This document shows, one piece after another, positions 11,344 through 21,386 of a stretch of DNA of 64,000 bases. The position numbers were made by a program, and so were the translations under genes. The notes under the pieces are model-generated. The model was not told where the DNA came from and ran no database searches. It saw only the letters and a list, made by a program, of their open reading frames with translations. The DNA lies in contig DASXRG010000038.1 of the NCBI GenBank assembly GCA_036506735.1, positions 6,856 to 70,855 of the forward strand. The letters run 5' to 3'. Every line of letters starts with the position of its first letter. Position 1 is the stretch's first letter. Origin of the DNA: Candidatus Binatia bacterium. Its GTDB lineage: Bacteria; Desulfobacterota; Binatia; UBA9968.

Positions 11344-12567
11344 ATGGCGCTGTTCCAGTATCGCGCCGCGGATTATTCCGGCAAGGTCGTCGAAGGAGTC
11401 ATGGACGCCGACGCCGAGCAAGGTGTCGTCTCGCGACTCCACGACATGGGCTTCGTTCCCTTGCGCATCTCGGCATCGAACGAGGCAGCCGGCAGATCGG
11501 CCCAGCACGCCGTATCGCTCTTCCTGCACCGAAAAGTAAGCGAGAAAGCCCTGCTGCATTTTACTCAGGAGCTCAGCACGCTCCTCGGCGCGGGTCTGCC
11601 TCTCGATCGCAGCCTGTCGGTGCTGGCGAACCTGGTGGAAAGTCAGGAATTCAAAAAGGTCGTCGGGCGGCTTCTGGAAGAGGTGCGCGCCGGCAAATCG
11701 CTCGCCGCCGCGATGGCGGAGCACAGCGACGTATTTCCCAAGCTCTATGTCAACATGATTCGCGCCGGCGAGGCCGGCGGCGTGCTCGACGGCGTCTTGC
11801 GCCATCTTTCAGACTATCTCGAGCGCGCGATAGCCCTGAAAGAGGATCTCAAAGCGGCGCTGACTTACCCCGTGGTTCTCGCCACCGTAGCCGGGCTCTC
11901 GCTGCTGTTTCTCTTCGTTTACGTTATTCCGAAATTCGCGCTCATATTCAAAGATATTCACCAGGCTATTCCCGTGATGGCCAAGGTGCTGATCGGCTTC
12001 AGCGAGTGGGTGGCAGAGTACGGATGGATCGCTTTGATTCTGATCGTCGTAGGCGTTGCGGGCGGATCGTTCTATATCCGTAGCCCGGAAGGCAGGCTTC
12101 AGTGGGACCGCTGGCGTCTCAACGTCTGGCTCGTCGGCCACCTCATGCGCCAACTCGAGGTGGCCCGCTTCGCGCGTACTCTGGGCGCATTGCTGAAGGG
12201 CGGCGTGCCGCTGCTCGATGCCTTGGGCACGGTTCAGGGAGTGGTCGGTAACCGTTTGATCGCGCGCGCTATAGCGCAAGTCCAGAGCCGCGTGCGCGAA
12301 GGCAAGGGCATGGTCGGGCCCCTGACCGAAAGCGGACTTTTTCCGCCGCTCGCTTTGCACATGATCGCCGTAGGCCAGGAAACCGGCCGTCTGGAAGGGA
12401 TGCTGGTGAATGTCGCGGACCACTATGATCAAGAGGTGAAGCGCACCACCAAGCGGCTGACGTCGCTGCTCGAGCCGATTTTGATTGTCGGCATGGGATT
12501 GGTGATCGGAACGGTCGTCATCTCCATGCTGACGGCGATTTTCAGTATCAACGATTTGCCGTATTGA
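11344..12567 (+). CDS. gspF: Type II secretion inner-membrane platform protein GspF
   Basis: 407 aa with two T2SSF repeats (GLPLDRSLSVL..., GVPLLDALGTV...) and three TM segments. Confidence 0.85.
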   Translation: MALFQYRAADYSGKVVEGVMDADAEQGVVSRLHDMGFVPLRISASNEAAGRSAQHAVSLFLHRKVSEKALLHFTQELSTLLGAGLPLDRSLSVLANLVESQEFKKVVGRLLEEVRAGKSLAAAMAEHSDVFPKLYVNMIRAGEAGGVLDGVLRHLSDYLERAIALKEDLKAALTYPVVLATVAGLSLLFLFVYVIPKFALIFKDIHQAIPVMAKVLIGFSEWVAEYGWIALILIVVGVAGGSFYIRSPEGRLQWDRWRLNVWLVGHLMRQLEVARFARTLGALLKGGVPLLDALGTVQGVVGNRLIARAIAQVQSRVREGKGMVGPLTESGLFPPLALHMIAVGQETGRLEGMLVNVADHYDQEVKRTTKRLTSLLEPILIVGMGLVIGTVVISMLTAIFSINDLPY

Positions 12568-12584
12568 GAAAGAAGGGGTCGACA

Positions 12585-13046
12585 ATGATTAAGAGACGAG
12601 AAAAGTTCAACCGTTCGTTGGCGCCGCTGACGCAGCGCGGCGGCTTTACCTTGATCGAGCTGCTCGTTGTCATGGTGATCATCGGTCTCCTTGCTGCACT
12701 GGTGGGCCCGAAACTCCTCGGCCAAAAGGAAAAGGCGGAGGTGGGCGCGGCCAGAGTGCAGATCGAGATGCTGAGCGCCGCATTGGATACGTTCCGCCTC
12801 GACGTCGGACGCTATCCGACGACCGATGAAGGACTGGAGGCTTTGATTCGCAAGCCGGTCAGTGCGGACCGATGGGATGGTCCTTATCTGAGAAAAGACG
12901 CCGTTCCGCTCGATCCTTGGAAGAAGCCGTATATTTATCGGAGTCCGGGCGAGCACGGCGCGTTCGATCTCTTCACGTACGGCGCCGACGGCGCTCCGGG
13001 GGGAGAAGGAAACAATCGTGATGTCGGGAGCTGGGAGACATCGTGA
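12585..13046 (+). CDS. gspG: Major pseudopilin GspG
   Basis: RGGFTLIELLVVMVIIGLLAALV prepilin signature and the GspG core (YPTTDEGLEAL...DPWKKPYIYRSPGEHGAFDLFTYGADGAPGGEG). ATG at 12585 has a GAAGGGG Shine-Dalgarno; a TTG at 12564 is an alternative. Confidence 0.85.
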   Translation: MIKRREKFNRSLAPLTQRGGFTLIELLVVMVIIGLLAALVGPKLLGQKEKAEVGAARVQIEMLSAALDTFRLDVGRYPTTDEGLEALIRKPVSADRWDGPYLRKDAVPLDPWKKPYIYRSPGEHGAFDLFTYGADGAPGGEGNNRDVGSWETS

Positions 13047-13498
13047 TTGCGCGCCTCGCAAAATCCAGGCAGGGCTTTTCCCTCATTGAACTCATGATGG
13101 TCCTTGTGCTTGTCGGGTTGGCGAGTCTGATAACCATTCCGGCCATTGATCGTGGAATCAAAAAGCGCCAGGCCAGGCAGTCGATCCTGGCAATCGCGGC
13201 AGTGGCGCGCGACATGCGCCGGCGGGCCATTGACGAAGGGAAGCTCAAGGAACTTATCATCAGCCCCCGCGAGGACAGCTACTTCGCCTCGGGCACCGAC
13301 ATCTTCCACTTGCCCCAGACGGTCAAAGTCACCGGGATCGCGGGCGGCGAGCCGCTCGGCAATCAGATCACGCGATTTACCTTTTTCCCCAACGGAAGCA
13401 TCGTCGGCGGCGCCATCGAGCTTTCGGATCGCCAACAATATACGTACTTGATACGTCTCGAACCGCTCGTGGGACGCGTCGTGGTGACCCGACAATGA
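13043..13498 (+). CDS. gspH: Minor pseudopilin, GspH-like
   Basis: SRQGFSLIELMMVLVLVGL prepilin motif after a 10-aa leader; 151 aa; GTGA overlap with the gspG stop. Confidence 0.65.
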   Translation: MIARLAKSRQGFSLIELMMVLVLVGLASLITIPAIDRGIKKRQARQSILAIAAVARDMRRRAIDEGKLKELIISPREDSYFASGTDIFHLPQTVKVTGIAGGEPLGNQITRFTFFPNGSIVGGAIELSDRQQYTYLIRLEPLVGRVVVTRQ

Positions 13499-13989
13499 AA
13501 AACGAAAAGCGGAAAACGGAAAGCGGAAATAGGAAATCCGAAAATCCAAAACCTGTCCCTTCGATAAACTCAGGGCAAGCTCTGAGCCAAGCCGAAGGAT
13601 CTAAAATCGAAAGTGGTTTTACCCTTTTGGAAGTCGTCGTCGCCATGGCGATCGTCGGCTTGGGAGTGGTGACTTTGCTCGAAGTTTTTTCGTACGGCCT
13701 CAGGCTGGAAGCCTCCGGCGCGGCCCGGACCGATGCCGTCGTCTACAGCCGCCAGGTGATGGACGAGTTTCTGACCCGCAAGGATTTTGACGGTCGGGGA
13801 GATGCAGGCTCGTTCGGAAAGAACCACCGCTGGCGGGTGGATACCAGTCCCCTGCGCGACGACAGCGACCTCGCGCCGAAGGGCTGGGACGTAACCGAGA
13901 TCACGCTGCGCATGCGCTACCCCGACGGAGAGCGCGACAAACTGGTGGAGATGAAAACTCTCCGGGTGCAAAAAACGAAACGACAATGA
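13495..13989 (+). CDS. gspI: Minor pseudopilin, GspI-like, with 41-aa leader
   Basis: ESGFTLLEVVVAMAIVGLGVV prepilin motif. The only in-frame start is the ATG at 13495 (ATGA overlap with gspH), giving an unusually long leader. Confidence 0.65.
   Translation: MKNEKRKTESGNRKSENPKPVPSINSGQALSQAEGSKIESGFTLLEVVVAMAIVGLGVVTLLEVFSYGLRLEASGAARTDAVVYSRQVMDEFLTRKDFDGRGDAGSFGKNHRWRVDTSPLRDDSDLAPKGWDVTEITLRMRYPDGERDKLVEMKTLRVQKTKRQ
13498..13552. repeat. Tandem degenerate heptamer tract (GGAAARC type) inside the gspI leader codons
   Basis: GAAAAGC GGAAAAC GGAAAGC GGAAATA GGAAATC CGAAAAT CCAAAAC. The same repeat type recurs at 22562-22593. Confidence 0.7.
13540..13605 (+). repeat. 66-nt block duplicated in gspI and gspJ leaders, copy 1
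   Basis: 61/66 identity to 14028-14093. Encodes ENPKPVPSINSGQALSQAEGSK. Contains the hairpin CCTTCG..CTCAG-GGCAAGCT-CTGAG..CGAAGG. Confidence 0.85.
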
Positions 13990-14705
13990 AAAGCGAAAAT
14001 GCTCGGCAGCCGCGGGCGCCCAAAATCGAAAATCCAAAACCTGTCCCTTCAATAAACTCAGGGCAGGCTCTGAGCCAGGCCGAGGGATCCAAATTGGAAT
14101 GCGGCTTCACGTTGATCGAGGTCACGGTCGCGATCACCTTACTGGCGTTGATTATTGCGACGCTTTACGGCTCCTTTCATTTAAGTGAAAAAGCCATGGT
14201 GAAGGCGCAAGCGCGCGCCGAGGAGAGCCAGGGGCTCAGGACGTTTCACAGTTTCCTCGGCGAGTATATCCACTCCGCTTATCCGTATCGGGCGTCGGCG
14301 CGGGATGCCGCCGTATACTTCATCGGCGACGACCGGGGCGTCGAATTCGTCTCCTCGCTCTCAACCGGCCTCGGCGGCCGCGGCATGTCCAAGGTGCGGA
14401 TCTCCGCCGAGCTCGTGGGCAATCGCGGCGCGACGTTGACGTTGGAGGAAGAAATGCCCGTGCGCGTGAGCGACAAGGACAGCGGCAGCGGCGGCTACCG
14501 GAACAGCGTCGTGCTCGCCGAGGGCCTCAAAGGATTGCGCCTAGAATATCTCGATTCCCAATCTCAGGACGAGAACTGGGTCGATGAATGGGACGGCCGG
14601 CAGCGCCGGTCGCTGCCGCGGGCCGTGCGCCTGATCCATCGGGGCGAGCGAGGCGCGGAAATCCGCTGGGTGTTTCCCATTATGATGAGAGTCTTAACAC
14701 CGTGA
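13986..14705 (+). CDS. gspJ: Minor pseudopilin, GspJ-like, with 40-aa leader
   Basis: ECGFTLIEVTVAITLLALII prepilin motif; 239 aa; ATGA overlap with gspI. Confidence 0.6.
   Translation: MKSENARQPRAPKIENPKPVPSINSGQALSQAEGSKLECGFTLIEVTVAITLLALIIATLYGSFHLSEKAMVKAQARAEESQGLRTFHSFLGEYIHSAYPYRASARDAAVYFIGDDRGVEFVSSLSTGLGGRGMSKVRISAELVGNRGATLTLEEEMPVRVSDKDSGSGGYRNSVVLAEGLKGLRLEYLDSQSQDENWVDEWDGRQRRSLPRAVRLIHRGERGAEIRWVFPIMMRVLTP
14028..14093 (+). repeat. 66-nt block duplicated in gspI and gspJ leaders, copy 2
   Basis: See 13540-13605. The five differences (tcg/tca, caa/cag, caa/cag, gaa/gag, tct/tcc) are all third-codon-position and synonymous. Confidence 0.85.
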
Positions 14706-15736
14706 AATCACACTCGGCACTCAGCACTCGGTCCTCAGCACTATCCAATGAGCGCGGCGTGGCGCTGATCGTCGTGCTGTGGATTTTTATCTTTCTCTTC
14801 GTCGTGGCCTTCGATTTTTCCGCGGCGGTGCGCGAGGAGGGAATGGCGGCGCACCGTTATGCCGAAGAAGCGGAGGGCTACTACCTGGCGCTCGCGGGCT
14901 TTCAGCAGGGGATTTATGAGTTGATGAAGCTATCGGCAAAGACGGGACAGGTCGCCGCGCCGCAGGGCAGCGACGTGTTCGAAGGAAATTGGATCAAAGG
15001 GAATCTGGGCGGAGGAATCTACGAGGTCCGGTTCGTCGATGAGTCGGGGAAGATCAACATCAACCGCATCACCGACGACACCCTGCGCCTGGTCTTGGCT
15101 CATCTGGGCGTGGAGGAAAAAAGGCGCAACATTATCGCCGATTCCGTCATGGATTGGCGCGACGAAGACGACCTGCATCGCTTGAACGGCGCGGAGAGCG
15201 ATTATTATCTGACGCTCTCGCCTCCCTATACGGCGCGGAACGGGCCGTTCGATTCCGTCGAGGATTTGCTATGGGTGCGCGGGGTGACGCCGGAGATTTT
15301 CTACGGCCGTGAGGGCGGCGTCGGGCTGCAAGAAGTTTTTACCGTTGACAGCCAGTCGGCGGTCAATCTGCGCACCGCGCCGCCCGCGGTCTGTGTCGCG
15401 CTGCTCGGCGTCTCGTTGGAAAAATGCCAAGCCTTCATCGACCAGAGGGCCAAGCTGTCGGAGAAGACCCTGGGCGATCTGTTGCGGCTTTTAGGGATTG
15501 CCGACGATGATTTGATCCGGCGGCAGGTGACGTTCGCCAATCCGACCGTGATCACGATCGAAGCCAAGGGGTATCAAGCGAACTCGACTACCGAGCGGCA
15601 GGTCAAAGGAGTGGTCCGCATGCTCGGCGGCGACCGGGGTTACGACCTGCTTCGCTGGATCGATCGCGACTCGCCCAAGGGCATCAGGTCAACCGGCTTC
15701 CAATACGAGGAAGGTGATAGCCAACCCGCGTCATGA
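14702..15736 (+). CDS. gspK: Minor pseudopilin GspK
   Basis: ERGVALIVVLWIFIFLFVVAF N-terminal helix and the GspK core (GKININRITDDTLRLVL, helix-hairpin-helix-like region). GTG at 14702 gives a GTGA overlap with gspJ; the ORF-track start at 14588 lies inside gspJ. Confidence 0.7.
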   Translation: MKSHSALSTRSSALSNERGVALIVVLWIFIFLFVVAFDFSAAVREEGMAAHRYAEEAEGYYLALAGFQQGIYELMKLSAKTGQVAAPQGSDVFEGNWIKGNLGGGIYEVRFVDESGKININRITDDTLRLVLAHLGVEEKRRNIIADSVMDWRDEDDLHRLNGAESDYYLTLSPPYTARNGPFDSVEDLLWVRGVTPEIFYGREGGVGLQEVFTVDSQSAVNLRTAPPAVCVALLGVSLEKCQAFIDQRAKLSEKTLGDLLRLLGIADDDLIRRQVTFANPTVITIEAKGYQANSTTERQVKGVVRMLGGDRGYDLLRWIDRDSPKGIRSTGFQYEEGDSQPAS

Positions 15737-17175
15737 GTTATCCCCGCTGGCTTAAAGATCTCTCCCGCGCCGATTTTGTCCGCAGCGTCGGGCTCTACGT
15801 CACGCCGGAGCGCTTCTACCTCGTGCGCATGCGCAAGAACTTGCTGAACCTCGCCGTGCTCGAGGCGCAGTCCCGTGAGATACCGACGGGGGAGGATCCG
15901 GCGGCGCGCAAGCAGGCTCTCGCCGATGCGCTCCGATCTCTGGTTCGGTTCGATCCCGCGAGAGATCCTCTGTACGTCTGTCTGTCGTCGGACCAGGTGA
16001 TCAGCCTCGAGATATCCTTGCCGCAGATCGCCGGCGAAAATCTATCCCAGGTGGTCGAATACGAAATCGAACGACACCTGCCGTTTCGCCGGGAGGAGAT
16101 CTACTACGATTTTCTGCCCATGGGGCTCAAAGGCGATAAGGTCGGCGTGATTCTGTTCGCGGTGCAGAAAAAGATCGTCGATGAAGTCCTCGAAGTGTTT
16201 TCCGCCTTCGGGGCGAAGCCCAAGGGCCTGGAAAGCTCGGCGACGGCGCTGTCCAATTATCTTCTCTTCTGCACCGGAGGGATCGACGGTCCGGCGCTGC
16301 TGCTCGGAGGTCAGAACCACGACTGGGAAATCACCGGTCTCAGCGCCAAAGGCGAAGGCTGGCGCCAGGAAGCCGTGCTGGCTTTCAATCACCGGCTGCC
16401 GCATTCCGACTGGGCCCAAGGGCCGGGCCGGGAGCTTTTTTACGGTTCGTTGCGCGACTCGCCGCGGTTTTTCGGCTGGGGCACGGCGGCGGAATTTTTA
16501 CGCTCCGTCAGCGAAGACGCGGTGCCGTACGAGGATCTGTTCGATTTAGGCAAGGCCAAGTTGGCCAAAGGGAATGAGCTGGCGGCCGATCCGGCTTTTC
16601 TACCGGCGCTCGGCGCCGCGCTGCACGGTCTTCGTGAGGCGACGTTCGCGGTCAATCTGGTTCCCGGAGCAAAAAAGGACAGCCGCGGAAAAGTGCTTTC
16701 GTGGCTGAATACGGCGCTCGCCGTTCTGCTCGTGATCGGGCTCATCGGATGGGGCGTAAGCTATCCGATCAAAGACGAGATCCGGCTGCGCCGGTTCCAG
16801 AAAGAGAACGAGAAAATCGCCCCGGCGGTGGAGGCGCTGCGCCGCGAAGAGACCGAGCTCAACCGTTTGCGTAAAGAGATCGCCTTTTTCTCCGACTTAA
16901 AGGCGCGCCGAGGCATCGTGATGCGCATCCTGGACGAGCTTTCGCGCATCGTCCCGACCAACGCGTACGTTTCCAATCTGCGCTTTCGCGAAGCGACGCT
17001 CGAGCTCCAGGGCAGCGCGGACAACGCGTCGAATTTAGTTCCTCTGCTCGAGCGCTCGCCGGTATTTGAAAATGTCGCCACCAACGCTCCGTCGAGCACG
17101 GATCGCATCGGCAAACAAACGTTTTCCATCAAGGCCGAGATCGAAAAGCCCAAAGCAGGCGGAGCCAAACCATGA
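15733..17175 (+). CDS. gspL: GspL-like assembly protein (PilM-like cytoplasmic domain + TM + PilN-like periplasmic domain)
   Basis: 480 aa, a single TM (WLNTALAVLLVIGLIGWGV) at about two-thirds of the length, coiled-coil and ferredoxin-like C-terminus; ATGA overlap on both sides. Confidence 0.6.
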   Translation: MSYPRWLKDLSRADFVRSVGLYVTPERFYLVRMRKNLLNLAVLEAQSREIPTGEDPAARKQALADALRSLVRFDPARDPLYVCLSSDQVISLEISLPQIAGENLSQVVEYEIERHLPFRREEIYYDFLPMGLKGDKVGVILFAVQKKIVDEVLEVFSAFGAKPKGLESSATALSNYLLFCTGGIDGPALLLGGQNHDWEITGLSAKGEGWRQEAVLAFNHRLPHSDWAQGPGRELFYGSLRDSPRFFGWGTAAEFLRSVSEDAVPYEDLFDLGKAKLAKGNELAADPAFLPALGAALHGLREATFAVNLVPGAKKDSRGKVLSWLNTALAVLLVIGLIGWGVSYPIKDEIRLRRFQKENEKIAPAVEALRREETELNRLRKEIAFFSDLKARRGIVMRILDELSRIVPTNAYVSNLRFREATLELQGSADNASNLVPLLERSPVFENVATNAPSSTDRIGKQTFSIKAEIEKPKAGGAKP

Positions 17176-17885
17176 ATCGCTTCCGGCGCATCTGGCAGCG
17201 CCTTTCCCAGCGCGAAAAGGGTCTCGTTCTGGCGACCCTGGCGATCTTCGGCTTGCTCCTCGGACGTTATTTTATCTGGGCGCCGTTTGTGGACCGCAGA
17301 GAATCGGTCAAAAACCAGCTCGAGCTCCAACCGCAACGCCTGGAAAAAAATCTGCGCTACATCGATCGCAAGCCGGAAATCATGGCGGGGCTCGAAAAGG
17401 CCCGCACCGAGCTCAAGTCGCTCGAACCGATGCTCTTGACGGGAGATACTCCTTCGGTGAGCGCCTCGACCCTTCAGGAGACCGTGCAGGGCTTCGCGTC
17501 GAAGGGCGGCGCCCAGGTCATCTCCACGCGCGTGCTGGGTCCGGAGGCGATGGGCACGTTCACGCGGATTCCGATCCAGTTGGAGGTCACCGGGCAGATC
17601 GATCAGCTGGCCAACCTGATCCAGGGAATCGAATCCTCGCAGCCGAAGCTTTTATTGATCAATGAGATCAACGTTCGCTCCTTTGCGGTCGTCGGCGCTC
17701 CGCCGCGGCGTCCGGACGGTGCGGCGCAGCCGCCGCAAAATCTGCGCGTCAGCCTGATCGTCTCCGGCTTTATCCGCAACCAGTCCGCGGCTCCGTCAAA
17801 GGATGCCGCCTTGGACCGCGGGGTGAGAGCAAAAGAGAAAGAAGACGATGTCCGTGCGCCGAGAAGGCGCTCTGAGGAGGACTAA
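17172..17885 (+). CDS. gspM: GspM / PilO-like assembly protein
   Basis: N-terminal TM (LVLATLAIFGLLLG), coiled coil, then FTRIPIQLEVTGQIDQLANLIQGIESS, typical of GspM/PilO. Confidence 0.5.
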   Translation: MNRFRRIWQRLSQREKGLVLATLAIFGLLLGRYFIWAPFVDRRESVKNQLELQPQRLEKNLRYIDRKPEIMAGLEKARTELKSLEPMLLTGDTPSVSASTLQETVQGFASKGGAQVISTRVLGPEAMGTFTRIPIQLEVTGQIDQLANLIQGIESSQPKLLLINEINVRSFAVVGAPPRRPDGAAQPPQNLRVSLIVSGFIRNQSAAPSKDAALDRGVRAKEKEDDVRAPRRRSEED

Positions 17886-18110
17886 ACGCGCGACCCGCAT
17901 GGAACGAATCCCGAGTTAGCACCGGGATTTGCCGGTTTGCACCCGTGAAATTTACCCTCCGGTAACAGCCCTTTGCAAAATCTGCAATATCCGTTGACCT
18001 CGGGTTTTTTCCGGAGTAGGAATAAGGGGCAAATTTGCCTTGGCCCATGGGAGGGTTGAGTTATTCTTAAGCGGTCTTCGCTTCTGAGCCTTTTACTTCT
18101 CGCCGCTATC

Positions 18111-18848
18111 GTGTTCGTGGACGCGAGCATTTACCGGCTATGGCAGACGGGTCCACGGGATCTGCCGGTCACGGTGAAGCCCAAGCAGCCTCCAGCTCCC
18201 GAGCCGGCAAAAGAATCGGCGCCGGAGCTCCCGACAGCGAACACGCGCGAGGTTATCGCAAAAAACCTCTTCGATCCCGAACGCGGCGCAACCAAAGCAA
18301 ACGAGCAAAAGAATCAAGCCGAAGAGGCGGCCAAGCAGAGAATACGCAACATGACATTGCTCGGCACGGCGATTTTAGGAAACAGCCGATACGCCATCAT
18401 GCAGGAGCCGTCGGCGACGCCGCGCGGCGGGCCCACCAAAGCGCAGCCCAATACGAATACGGGGCAAATGCGGCTCAAACTCGGCGACACGGTGGAAGGA
18501 TTCAGGTTGTCGGAGGTCAGGGACAAGAGCGTGGTTTTTACCAAAGGGGCTACTCGGGTCGAGGTGTCGATCGATTTCTTTAATCCCGGCCCGGAGCCGC
18601 CCCCAACCTCGGCGCCGCCCGCGCCGCGCACGCCGGTTCCGCCGAGACAGACGGTGCCGCCGCGCGCAGTCCCGCGCCCCGCCCCGGGCGCCGAAGGCAG
18701 CCCGCCTCCCGCGCCGCAGTCCAGCGTCGAGCGCGCGCGCAACGCTTTACGAGAACGGCAGCTCCAACCGCCGCAGCAACCGGAAGGGCGGCCGCCGCAG
18801 CGAGTCACACCGACGAACCCAGAGAACGCTCCGGCCGGAAGTCCTTGA
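18111..18848 (+). CDS. GspC / PilP-like protein with Pro-rich C-terminus (start uncertain)
   Basis: MRLKLGDTVEGFRLSEVRDKSVVFTKGATRVEVSI resembles the GspC HR / PilP beta-domain. The in-frame upstream codons 18063-18110 encode a TM helix but contain no canonical start (see findings). Confidence 0.5.
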   Translation: MFVDASIYRLWQTGPRDLPVTVKPKQPPAPEPAKESAPELPTANTREVIAKNLFDPERGATKANEQKNQAEEAAKQRIRNMTLLGTAILGNSRYAIMQEPSATPRGGPTKAQPNTNTGQMRLKLGDTVEGFRLSEVRDKSVVFTKGATRVEVSIDFFNPGPEPPPTSAPPAPRTPVPPRQTVPPRAVPRPAPGAEGSPPPAPQSSVERARNALRERQLQPPQQPEGRPPQRVTPTNPENAPAGSP

Positions 18849-18866
18849 GTGATAAAGGAGGGAAAC

Positions 18867-21386
18867 ATGGCACCGAGAATATCCCGCAAGAACCTTCTGG
18901 TTGCGGTCTTGATATGGTTTATTTTCATCTCCATTCCAGGGCCGGCGGGCAGGTTCGTGCGCGCGCAAGAGCGCGGCGAGCGAGAAACCGCAACCGAGGT
19001 GCAACCTCCTGAGGGCGACGAGTCGGAAGAGAAAGGCGCAGTGGCGCCGACTCCTCAAGCGCCGCAATCTCAACCGGTCCCGCAGACTCCGCCGGCTGGC
19101 CGCGGGCAACCGCCCGTAGCCACGCCCGAGCGGCGCCTGTCGCCCGCGCCGGCGGCTCCGCGCGGCGGCGGCGGGGAGATGGTGTCGCTCAATTTCAACC
19201 GCGCCGACTTGATCGAGGTCATCCATGTGTTGGCGCAGCATTTGCGCCTCACTTACACCATTGATCCCGACGTCAAAGGCACCGTCACGATCAACAGCGC
19301 CGAGCCGCTCAGAAAGGACGATCTGCTGCCGGTGTTCCATCAAATTCTGCGCATGAACGGCGCGGTGGCCGTAAAGAGCGGCGACATTTACCGTATCGCT
19401 CCGATCGAAAAAGGCAAAGGACTGGCGCGCCCCGTGGAATCCGAAAAAGACGGCGGCTATGCGATTCAAGTGGTCCCGGTGCGATTTTTCTCTGTCGCCG
19501 AGATGAAGCGGCTGCTCACGCCATTCGTTACGCCGGGAGGCGACATCTTCGACTACCCGCGCGGCAACTTTCTTATGATCGTCGATCTGCCTTCGAATAT
19601 CCAACGGCTGATGGAGATCCGGGACATGATCGACGTCCAGACTTTTGTCGGCACCAAGACCGAGATCTATCAACCCAAGGTGGCGAGCGCCGACGAGCTG
19701 CAGGCGGAGATGACCAAGGTCATGCAGGCTTATGCTTCTTCGTCCGCGCAGCAGGAGGGATTCGCGGCGCAGTTTCTTTCGATTCCACGGATCAATCAGC
19801 TTTTAGTCATCGCCGACAGCGAGGCCGCATGGACTTACGTCAAGCGCTGGCTCGAACGGCTCGACACCCTGGGCGAAGGCCCGGGACGGAAAATTCACAT
19901 CTATCCGGTGGAAAACGGCAAGGCATCGGAGCTGGCCGATGTGTTGACCCAGGTGTTAGGCATTACCGCCGGCGCGCAAAGGCAGCAGGGGCGGACGCTT
20001 GAGCAGATCCACCGGTCAACGTCGGGCGCATCGCCCCCAACGACGCCAGGTTTGCAGCGGACTCCGGGAATGGTGGGGACACCGTTTGGAGCCTTCGCCG
20101 TCGCGCCGGCGCAGCCCCAACAGCAACAGCCGACGACGCCGCCGCAGGCCACGACGCCGCCCAGACCGCAACAGCAGCAGCCCCCACGGCCGGGAGAGGC
20201 CAGGCCGGGGGACACGAGCCAGATTGACCAAGTTCGGATTGTCGCCGATACGACGACGAATACGCTGATCATCTACGGCAGCGCTCAGGAGTTTCAAAAT
20301 ATCAGAATGATCCTGAAAGAGCTGGACATCCCGCCGCGCCAAGTCGTGCTCGAATGTCTCGTGGCGGAGGTCAAAGCTGGACCCGACAGCAACTCGCTCG
20401 GATTCGATTACCAACTCGTTTTCGGCGGGACCCTTAAAGGAAAAGGGGGAAATACCGGGTTCACCGATGCTTTCACTTCGACGAAGGCTGCGCCCTTTCC
20501 CATCCAACTCGGCGCAACCAAAGGCCTTGCCGCGCTGATCGGCGACGACAGGGTCCGCGGTTTGGTCACCGCGTTGCAGAACGATAGCCGTTCGAAAATC
20601 CTCGCCTCGCCGACGATTCTCGCGACCGACAACCAGGCCGCCCGTATTCAGGTCGGCGACGAAGTCCCGGTCGCGACCGGGACGATATCTTCCGCCCTTA
20701 CGGGCAGCACCGGGGTCACAACCGCGATTCAATCCCGCAACACGGGAAAAATCATGACCATCATCCCGCAGGTCAACTCAAAAGGACTGGTTAATCTCCA
20801 GATCAAAGTCGAAGTGAGCCGGCCGGCCGGCAACGTTACGGTGGGAGATCAGAGTTTCCCCTCTTTCTCCACGCGCGACGTTGAGACCACGGCGGTGGTC
20901 AAGGATGGCGAGGCTCTGGTGATCGGCGGCATCTTCGCCGAGGACCGCGACCGGAGCCGCAGCGGCATCCCGTTTCTCATGGACATCCCGGTGTTCGGCT
21001 GGTTTTTCCGCAAGACGACGGAGACTTTGACCGAGCGGACCGAGCTGATCATCATCATCATGCCGCACGTGATTCGCGACGTTGAAGAATCGCGCAAGGT
21101 CACGGACGAATTCAAGAAAAAACTGTCTACAGTCGCCGGCGAGATCGAGAATATGAGAAGAGGAGGGGCGAAAGAGGATCTCCCGCCGCCGAAAGTGCAG
21201 CCGGTGGTGCCCGACAAAGAATCGAGCGCGGCTCCCGAGCTGGCGCCGGAAGGGCGCGGCGCGAGTGCTCCCGGCGGCAACAACCAAAACGGCGTCATGC
21301 CGGCGGCGGTCAACGTCCAAGCGCCGCCGTCACCAGGCGCATGGAAAACTATCGTGAAGTTCCTCTCGTTCGGCCTGGTGGATTGA
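18867..21386 (+). CDS. gspD: Secretin GspD
   Basis: N0/N1 domains (NFNRADLIEVIHVLAQHLRLTYTIDPDVKGTVTI) and secretin C-domain (GIPFLMDIPVFGWFFRKTTETLTERTELIIIIMPHVI). ATG at 18867 follows AAAGGAGGG; a GTG at 18849 is an alternative. Confidence 0.85.
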   Translation: MAPRISRKNLLVAVLIWFIFISIPGPAGRFVRAQERGERETATEVQPPEGDESEEKGAVAPTPQAPQSQPVPQTPPAGRGQPPVATPERRLSPAPAAPRGGGGEMVSLNFNRADLIEVIHVLAQHLRLTYTIDPDVKGTVTINSAEPLRKDDLLPVFHQILRMNGAVAVKSGDIYRIAPIEKGKGLARPVESEKDGGYAIQVVPVRFFSVAEMKRLLTPFVTPGGDIFDYPRGNFLMIVDLPSNIQRLMEIRDMIDVQTFVGTKTEIYQPKVASADELQAEMTKVMQAYASSSAQQEGFAAQFLSIPRINQLLVIADSEAAWTYVKRWLERLDTLGEGPGRKIHIYPVENGKASELADVLTQVLGITAGAQRQQGRTLEQIHRSTSGASPPTTPGLQRTPGMVGTPFGAFAVAPAQPQQQQPTTPPQATTPPRPQQQQPPRPGEARPGDTSQIDQVRIVADTTTNTLIIYGSAQEFQNIRMILKELDIPPRQVVLECLVAEVKAGPDSNSLGFDYQLVFGGTLKGKGGNTGFTDAFTSTKAAPFPIQLGATKGLAALIGDDRVRGLVTALQNDSRSKILASPTILATDNQAARIQVGDEVPVATGTISSALTGSTGVTTAIQSRNTGKIMTIIPQVNSKGLVNLQIKVEVSRPAGNVTVGDQSFPSFSTRDVETTAVVKDGEALVIGGIFAEDRDRSRSGIPFLMDIPVFGWFFRKTTETLTERTELIIIIMPHVIRDVEESRKVTDEFKKKLSTVAGEIENMRRGGAKEDLPPPKVQPVVPDKESSAAPELAPEGRGASAPGGNNQNGVMPAAVNVQAPPSPGAWKTIVKFLSFGLVD

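Follow-up and report, generated by a model that had tools for sequence, protein, structure and literature searches.

The window analysed here is a 64,000-nt stretch of contig DASXRG010000038.1 from a Candidatus Binatia bacterium, whose genome (G000) comprises 5.18 Mb in 403 contigs. It contains a type II secretion system (T2SS) operon in which two adjacent minor pseudopilin genes, gspI and gspJ, begin with leader-coding segments of 41 and 40 codons, three times longer than is usual, that share a 66-nt block. This block proved to be a copy of a dispersed hairpin repeat lying within heptanucleotide runs. We consider it probable that both leaders are real translated N-terminal extensions made from in-frame repeat DNA, which would be tolerated because it falls in a disposable presequence. 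Translation of the long leaders is in itself likely, judging from the way starts and frames are kept in relatives; selection on the 22-residue peptide encoded by the block is not supported by comparison with orthologs and with other copies of the repeat.

The long leaders of gspI and gspJ

The T2SS operon occupies positions 11344-21386 of the window (gspF-G-H-I-J-K-L-M ... gspD, by Pfam and NCBIfam), and both databases back the assignment of G, H, I, J, K, L and M to the T2SS. Its genes, in the order F-G-H-I-J-K-L-M, are chained via 4-nt start/stop overlaps, and the open reading frames (ORFs) of gspI (13495-13989) and gspJ (13986-14705), on the forward strand as are the neighbouring gsp genes and the leader elements described below, both open with an ATGA overlap with the upstream stop. 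The gspI leader-coding segment (13495..13617) comprises 41 codons, the first being the ATG that overlaps the gspH stop and the last that of Gly-1, and is followed by the mature GspI-like minor pseudopilin (FTLLEVVVAMAIVG..., 13618..13989). In the same way, the gspJ leader-coding segment (13986..14105), which begins at the ATG that overlaps the gspI stop and likewise ends with Gly-1, comprises 40 codons, and the mature GspJ-like minor pseudopilin covers 14106..14705. Both proteins possess the core of a class III signal peptide, Gly-1 | Phe+1 ... Glu+5 with ~20 hydrophobic residues (G|FTLLEVVVAMAIVG and G|FTLIEVTVAITLL), with the cleavage motifs G|FTLLE in GspI and G|FTLIE in GspJ. They match Pfam N_methyl (E 2.5e-5 and 3.2e-6, respectively) as well as TIGR02532, and their place in the order gspG-H-I-J-K agrees with the family matches. 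For GspJ, the Pfam T2SSJ match reaches 30.5 bits against a cut-off of 28; the assignment of GspI relies on N_methyl, weak XpsI/GspI matches and operon position, and the XpsI and GspJ NCBIfam matches score below their own cut-offs.

Counted including Gly-1, the leaders measure 41 residues in GspI and 40 in GspJ, and ENPKPVPSINSGQALSQAEGSK is common to both. These lengths, already given in the initial annotation, were confirmed from the ORFs, the start overlaps and the cleavage motifs, and they lie outside the 6-26 residues of short leaders (<10 for type IVa pilins and pseudopilins). Both leaders are hydrophilic and carry a net positive charge (+3 and +2), SENPKPVPSINSGQALSQAEGSK being an example of a peptide that they would yield, and their GC content is 0.44 (gspI) and 0.54 (gspJ) versus 0.605 for the operon.

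The 66-nt block (13540..13605 in gspI, 14028..14093 in gspJ) is composed of a heptamer flank, a hairpin module and a further flank, encodes ENPKPVPSINSGQALSQAEGSK, and has 61 of 66 bases in common between the two copies. Folding bore out the hairpin that had been proposed there. In gspI (13558..13598) it has an outer stem CCUUCG/CGAAGG, an inner stem CUCAGGG/CUCUGAG and a CAAG loop (-17.2 kcal/mol, z -2.4), and in gspJ (14043..14088) the outer stem is re-registered by two gspJ-specific changes (-23.1 kcal/mol, z -2.1). Reading the block one base later gives KTCPFDKLRASSEPSRRI, in agreement with the other-frame reading noticed earlier; the element is naturally free of stops in two of its three forward frames. 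An imperfect heptanucleotide array of the AAAACGG type (13499..13544, ~6.6 units, detected with Tandem Repeats Finder) makes up the first part of the gspI leader, and the gspI segment is made entirely of repeat material. The same program found a heptamer array at 14020-14039 in the gspJ leader, and overall the arrays of the window hold 2.9-6.6 units with 76-84% matches.

The two block copies differ at 13563, 13578, 13590, 13596 and 13602 (positions of the gspI copy), and direct comparison upheld the earlier observation that all five differences are synonymous and at codon position 3; all of them are transitions. Such a pattern has P ~0.003 under uniform placement, and the same holds with hairpin-neutral sites only. 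Three of the five sites are, however, habitual hot spots of the element (loop, bulge and 3' flank), and P becomes ~0.02, a rough estimate, once these hot spots are allowed for. We also considered constraint by the hairpin as the cause of the third-position pattern and discarded it, as structure-neutral sites are evenly distributed over the codon positions (17:19:18).

One explanation of the pattern would be that the 22 residues form a functional propeptide under purifying selection, for example a recognition or chaperoning segment common to GspI and GspJ. Besides the five synonymous transitions, this would fit two copies elsewhere, on the public contigs L085 (the same place as L082) and L084, which lie in the same frame before signal peptides of PF04392 binding proteins and differ from the gspI copy in the hairpin only at third positions, although two of these changes alter residues (Gln to His, and Ser to Arg in L084). 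On the contrary, 14 other copies compared with the gspI copy differ at codon positions 1:2:3 in the proportion 24:36:38. The codon-position bias of the gspI/gspJ pair, absent from the other copies, is a weak signal built on five sites, and we read it as mild support for in-frame translation, not for a functional peptide.

Where translation begins is a separate matter. The gspI leader runs from the sole canonical start of its frame and the gspJ leader from the most upstream one. The initial annotation had stated that no in-frame ATG, GTG or TTG lies closer to the cleavage motif, which holds for gspI and fails for gspJ, where a TTG (14094..14096) four codons before the cleavage site would give the leader MECG and is preceded, 6 nt upstream, by GAGGGA. 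This proximal TTG may be an additional start of gspJ. It could also mean that the repeat is an untranslated intercistronic spacer, in which case the real starts would be TTG 14094 in gspJ and a non-canonical ATC at 13606 in gspI, found in the same place after GAAGGA. The 3' arm of the hairpin (GAAGGA/GAGGGA) would then serve as Shine-Dalgarno (SD) sequence and the long ORFs would be a by-product of a stop-free repeat, as two open frames out of three would allow. A canonical proximal start is nevertheless absent in gspI, and the relatives bear directly on this point.

Leader length and junctions in relatives

We compared gspI and gspJ in 30 loci of relatives and one metagenome contig. The common state throughout the family is a 13-codon leader for both genes, with a start at -4 relative to the upstream stop. 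Leader length nonetheless ranges, even within the genus, from 7 to 44 residues in GspI and from 13 to 62 in GspJ, and in a set of 120 GspJ homologs, taken as the gene finders had called them, leader lengths have their mode at 13 (42 proteins), with a second peak at 20 and a tail to 46. Many of these 120 homologs carry other hairpin-derived peptides. When the junction exceeds 38 nt, 24 cases out of 26 have a canonical start no more than 7 nt from the upstream stop that shares the frame of the pseudopilin, with no stop ahead of the cleavage motif, against 2 of 52 for the same test in two control frames, a statistic that is inflated by shared ancestry among the genomes. As the lengthened leaders hold unrelated inserts, many of the lengthening events are independent. 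This conservation of frame and start makes it very probable that the extension is translated, as had been argued from the window alone, and it is not what an untranslated spacer would predict. Many orthologs with leaders ending KSKIQNG|F also lack a canonical proximal start.

The closest relative is the contig L049, with 93% identity in GspJ and ~94% DNA identity in the flanks. Its junctions, CGACAATGAA, are the same as those of the window, while the block is absent and the leader DNA is unrelated to the window's: the gspI leader has 21 codons made of GTTCCGR and AAACTCA heptamers, and the gspJ leader 13 codons. The empty site is thus occupied by non-homologous DNA and does not correspond to a clean excision. 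From this arrangement, the overlapping ATG of L049 must be the start, opening in gspJ a leader of 13 residues. Because the initiation context of the window is identical, ribosomes starting there would read through the repeat into the pseudopilin, which again argues against a spacer. The CGACAATGAAAA junction that had been found common to gspI and gspJ is real; since it is present in this relative without the block, it represents the ancestral gene junction, and the idea that it belongs to the repeat was rejected on the same ground.

A second species of the genus, G005, also has a hairpin at this site of gspI and of gspJ, homologous to that of the window. No difference separates the two G005 copies over 68 nt, and in their loop an insert specific to this species is nested. 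The frame in which they are read is the other open one, KTCPAFDKLRPRACRGEPSRRI (KTCPAFDKLRP...), as there is one heptamer fewer between hairpin and cleavage site. In both G000 and G005, the copies within one genome are more alike than copies across the two species, which points to a DNA-level process, either paired recent insertion or gene conversion. We also noticed that the gspJ leader of G005 (L020/L055/L074, contig C57) would be 62 residues long with two hairpin modules; in one of these, the loop itself holds another palindrome. This gene could alternatively have a short leader starting at an ATG four codons ahead of the cleavage site (MKNG|F), which would suit proximal starts downstream of an untranslated element.

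The block was found in no ortholog: a search of 61 genomes gave a gspJ match in 38 other relatives, and the block is absent from all of these as well as from the 120 database homologs. The ortholog check suggested earlier therefore gave no leader alignment on which dN/dS could be computed, and the claim that the 22 residues are conserved as a peptide is not supported: even an ortholog with 93% protein identity lacks them, the other frame is read in G005 and in 19 of the 24 in-frame copies described below, and the other copies vary without codon bias. What is kept across frames and contexts is the DNA and not the peptide. We thus regard a functional propeptide as the most improbable of the explanations weighed here.

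A dispersed hairpin repeat in export signals

The 66-mer was examined as a genome-wide repeat, and a dispersed hairpin core was indeed found. In G000 it recurs on contig C233 and, partially, on C53. It is present in 20 of 41 related genomes, 19 of them in the family of the window (f1), with up to 15 scored copies each. Its fold, its distribution in relatives and its 42 contexts in public contigs are those of a short dispersed imperfect palindrome, as in repetitive extragenic palindromic (REP) sequences and REP doublets forming hairpins (REPINs). Many copies belong to mosaic arrays with other palindromic modules and others are flanked by 7-nt runs (AAAATCN); in some of them, such as L070, heptamer runs form inverted arms. 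No target-site duplication, which together with terminal inverted repeats would mark a miniature inverted-repeat transposable element (MITE), was identifiable around the copies, since the element sits within repetitive heptamer runs, and a literature search for Binatia repeats returned nothing relevant. G000 contains a Y1_Tnp match (C227:52032-52361, 59 bits), and a Y1 transposase of the IS200 or REP-associated tyrosine transposase (RAYT) type could mobilise hairpin repeats. A second, longer palindromic family (CCCTTCGACAAGCTCAGGGCGAACGG ... CCGTTCGTGCTGAGCTTGTCGAAG) was seen in at least 12 copies in G000, on contigs C8, C13, C99, C124, C155, C166, C186, C227 and C236; its outer arm is common to the leader hairpin, which suggests a modular repeat system.

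A search with the leader peptide alone recovered only the GspI of the window and two precursors of ABC transporter binding proteins (PF04392), in which the block, with one residue different, stands ahead of the hydrophobic core of a Sec signal peptide. Public genomes and metagenomes were then screened with the 28-nt 5' arm, which gave 42 distinct copies, including the two of the window. In 24 of them the element is in frame and free of stops, and the hydrophobic core of an export signal comes immediately after it, 19 being read as KTCPFDKLRAGSE and five as NPKPVPSINSGQAL; no copy was found in the third, stop-containing frame. The genes that carry these 24 copies code for PF04392 and other binding proteins, for an LptE-like lipoprotein and for the two pseudopilins. 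Two further copies are in the 5' untranslated region of genes for exported or membrane proteins that have their own start, and ~16 of the 42 are plainly intergenic or at gene 3' ends. The element-encoded residues always precede the point at which cleavage of the signal peptidase, lipoprotein or prepilin type is predicted. Between element and core, nearly all of the 24 have no canonical start in the frame of the downstream gene, the nearest one being upstream of the element. The 5' side of the hairpin was examined in 17 copies, most of which have an in-frame ATG at a distance of 17-21 codons, usually after an SD-like motif. On public Binatia contigs (L105, L097, L117, L116 and L111, within L083-L124) the hairpin was seen in frame in N-terminal extensions, ~45-50 residues before the core, of PF04392 and other substrate-binding proteins and of an LptE-like lipoprotein, and the stretch between ATG and hairpin follows a loose common pattern, M..IFR..F....SDN[RL]KSK.

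These observations, together with the absence of a closed frame before Sec signal peptides (0 of 24), make an untranslated spacer in gspI and gspJ unlikely, although slightly less so than a selected propeptide. They also support the earlier proposal of a dispersed REP-like repeat serving as presequence, which now draws on copies across the genome, the relatives and the public contigs.

That the hairpin, alone or together with its heptamer flanks, is kept for a role as RNA or DNA deserves somewhat more consideration, though we hold it to be doubtful. The hairpin could act in coupling, in mRNA stability or in the speed of translation where genes for exported proteins begin. Alternatively, the 7-nt units could slip and switch genes on and off; translation of the element would be incidental in either case. 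In agreement with this, the 28-nt 5' arm is identical in 42 contexts whatever the frame while the neighbouring coding sequence differs, the hairpins are stable, and the layout is recurrent: an ATG ~19 codons upstream, usually with an SD-like motif, then heptamers, hairpin, heptamers and hydrophobic core. All genes found immediately after a copy code for exported or membrane proteins. Moreover, G000 and G005 differ by one heptamer, which changes the frame in which the hairpin is read; near-perfect arrays of period 7 are over-represented in G000 (94, versus 2 of period 8 and 6 of period 9); and heptamer simple-sequence repeats drive phase variation in Haemophilus (PMC12721329). However, the window arrays are short and imperfect (76% matches) and would be poor slippage substrates, L049 does without a hairpin, and the many intergenic and 3'-end copies do not fit a function at gene starts. 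The link to exported proteins, furthermore, could reflect a target preference for A-rich, Lys-coding DNA and is inflated by paralogy of the binding proteins.

About equally tentative is a broader reading, in which the heptamer-hairpin-heptamer unit is a portable presequence or translation-start module of Binatia, preferentially recruited at the 5' ends of exported-protein genes, those with prepilin-type leaders included. An SD-like motif and an ATG ~19 codons upstream, Lys-rich heptamer codons and then the hairpin could be its parts, with the RNA hairpin or slippage of the 7-nt units setting or switching expression.

The heptamer runs are conspicuous beyond the leaders. Period-7 arrays also occur as closely spaced inverted pairs (AGTGAGC facing CTGCTCA), forming hairpin-prone heptamer palindromes at gene boundaries; in the window such pairs are at 25243-25273/25293-25323, 31393-31424/31449-31479, 48520-48545/48573-48592 and 1585-1611/1612-1634. 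Elsewhere in G000, further near-perfect arrays fall within the hydrophilic head of putative signal peptides or membrane anchors and are in frame there, as in MNVKFKVPGSRFKV-RRSAMKKSACFSLLVLWLAA (C26:4948-4979, C73:26599-26631, C80:24034-24057, C156:2460-2514, C236:16077-16109 and C256:9088-9114).

Returning to the translated, tolerated repeat that we favour, the following course of events may be proposed. The ancestral genes would have had a 13-codon leader whose start overlapped the upstream stop, permitting translational coupling. In the genome of the window, the leader segment was probably rebuilt from heptanucleotide runs (AAAATCN-like, giving a Lys-rich hydrophilic peptide in any frame), and a REP-like hairpin module of 45-50 nt came to be nested in them. 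The near-identity of the gspI and gspJ copies, whose sites are 488 nt apart, would reflect conservation or homogenisation at the DNA level, through recent paired insertion or gene conversion. Leader peptides are cytoplasmic and are cleaved after Gly (PMC4471445). The long leaders would likewise stay in the cytoplasm and be removed by the prepilin peptidase after Gly-1, and because the mature pseudopilin would be left unchanged, the repeat could be tolerated. All that appears to be required of the leader is an open frame and a hydrophilic, net-positive peptide, whose own sequence would be close to neutral.

Several points weigh against this scheme. Leaders of 40 residues are beyond the 6-26/30 range of type IV pilins and pseudopilins (PMC4471445), which makes their efficient cleavage uncertain. 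Their translation and processing are deduced from sequence, in part through a junction statistic to which shared ancestry contributes. The SD-like GAGGGA before the proximal TTG of gspJ allows for a second start, and five synonymous differences out of five would be unexpected if the peptide were strictly neutral.

Neighbouring genes, comparable systems and implications

The genes around gspI and gspJ give some context on leader length. Upstream, gspH (13043..13498), whose stop overlaps the gspI start, has a repeat-free leader of 11 residues by the count used here, and not 10 as initially reported. The leader of the major pseudopilin GspG is 20 residues long (MIKRREKFNRSLAPLTQRGG, window 12585-12644), so leaders of this T2SS generally exceed the textbook 6-8 residues. 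Throughout the genus the GspG leader peptide is recognisably kept, as in VIRRYEKFFRPLRRLTRRSG and VIRREKKFYRPVDRLRLRDG, unlike the leaders of gspI and gspJ. Downstream, gspK starts (14702..14761) with a GTG overlapping the gspJ stop and has a presequence of ~19 residues, VKSHSALSTRSSALSNERG|VALIVVLW, encoded by a CACTCAG heptamer array (14711-14742, ~4.6 units). Its HSALST..SALS motif recurs in relatives, some of which have gspK presequences expanded to 33-41 residues. The only match to Peptidase_A24, the prepilin peptidase family, in G000 is on contig C89 (C89:7-303, 55.4 bits), at the contig edge and away from the T2SS locus.

Among known repeats, REP, bacterial interspersed mosaic elements (BIMEs) and REPINs of proteobacteria resemble the Binatia element as short, imperfect, dispersed palindromes forming mosaic arrays, and a gene for a Y1 transposase of RAYT-like type is present in G000. 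REP sequences are extragenic by definition, whereas the two window copies and 22 others are in ORFs at gene 5' ends, and flanks of heptamer runs are no REP feature. In the opa genes of Neisseria, a CTCTT pentamer 'coding repeat' lies in the region coding for the signal peptide and a change in unit number shifts the frame. The likeness consists in short tandem repeats within the presequence-coding part of an exported-protein gene; opa tracts are, however, long and perfect, encode the hydrophobic core and have demonstrated phase variation, while the Binatia arrays are short and imperfect and encode the hydrophilic part.

The nearest published analogue are the Rickettsia palindromic elements (RPEs), in which a palindromic repeat in frame in protein-coding genes is translated (Ogata et al. 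2000, reviewed in PMC10969869). Both are dispersed palindromes that are found in intergenic regions and in frame in genes and spare the host protein, translation of the Binatia element being deduced from frame conservation. RPEs measure ~150 bp and leave a conserved peptide in the mature protein, in contrast with the Binatia element, which has ~50 nt and its heptamer flanks, uses either of two frames in cleaved presequences and retains no conserved peptide; the two have no sequence relationship. What is new relative to the RPE theme is a short element, used in two frames and confined to cleaved presequences.

Heptanucleotide repeats have also been described as TAACTGA in Beggiatoaceae (PMC4679880), as GGGAATC/GGGGATT in Xanthomonas and Nostoc (PMC4692102) and as heptanucleotide elements in Geobacter metallireducens (PMC2700814). 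With these intergenic repeats the Binatia arrays share an excess of period 7 at gene boundaries, frequent inverted pairs and variability between close relatives. The repeats of those three reports are intergenic or regulatory, and translation in prepilin leaders or signal peptides is not described there. Finally, prepilins of the type IVb/Flp class have leaders of 15-30 residues (PMC4471445); these class III leaders clearly exceed 10 residues, and a prepilin peptidase processes them nonetheless. They are typical of their lineages and are not repeat insertions, whereas the minor pseudopilins of Binatia, with 40-41 residues (to 62 in G005), are beyond the documented range.

If the long leaders are made and processed, the range of class III signal peptides would extend from 6-26/30 to 40-62 residues, and prepilin leaders would be able to absorb arbitrary repeat DNA. 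Should the unit instead be a portable module, leader length of T2SS pseudopilins would be a rapidly evolving and possibly regulatory trait. The results are relevant for the annotation of gene starts in metagenome-assembled genomes and for signal-peptide predictors, and they call for caution, as conservation of a repeat at the DNA level should not be taken for conservation of a peptide. They also bear on how repeats spread without harm to genes: in this high-GC soil lineage, cleaved presequences of the prepilin, Sec and lipoprotein types appear to be a safe harbour within coding DNA for selfish or structural repeats.

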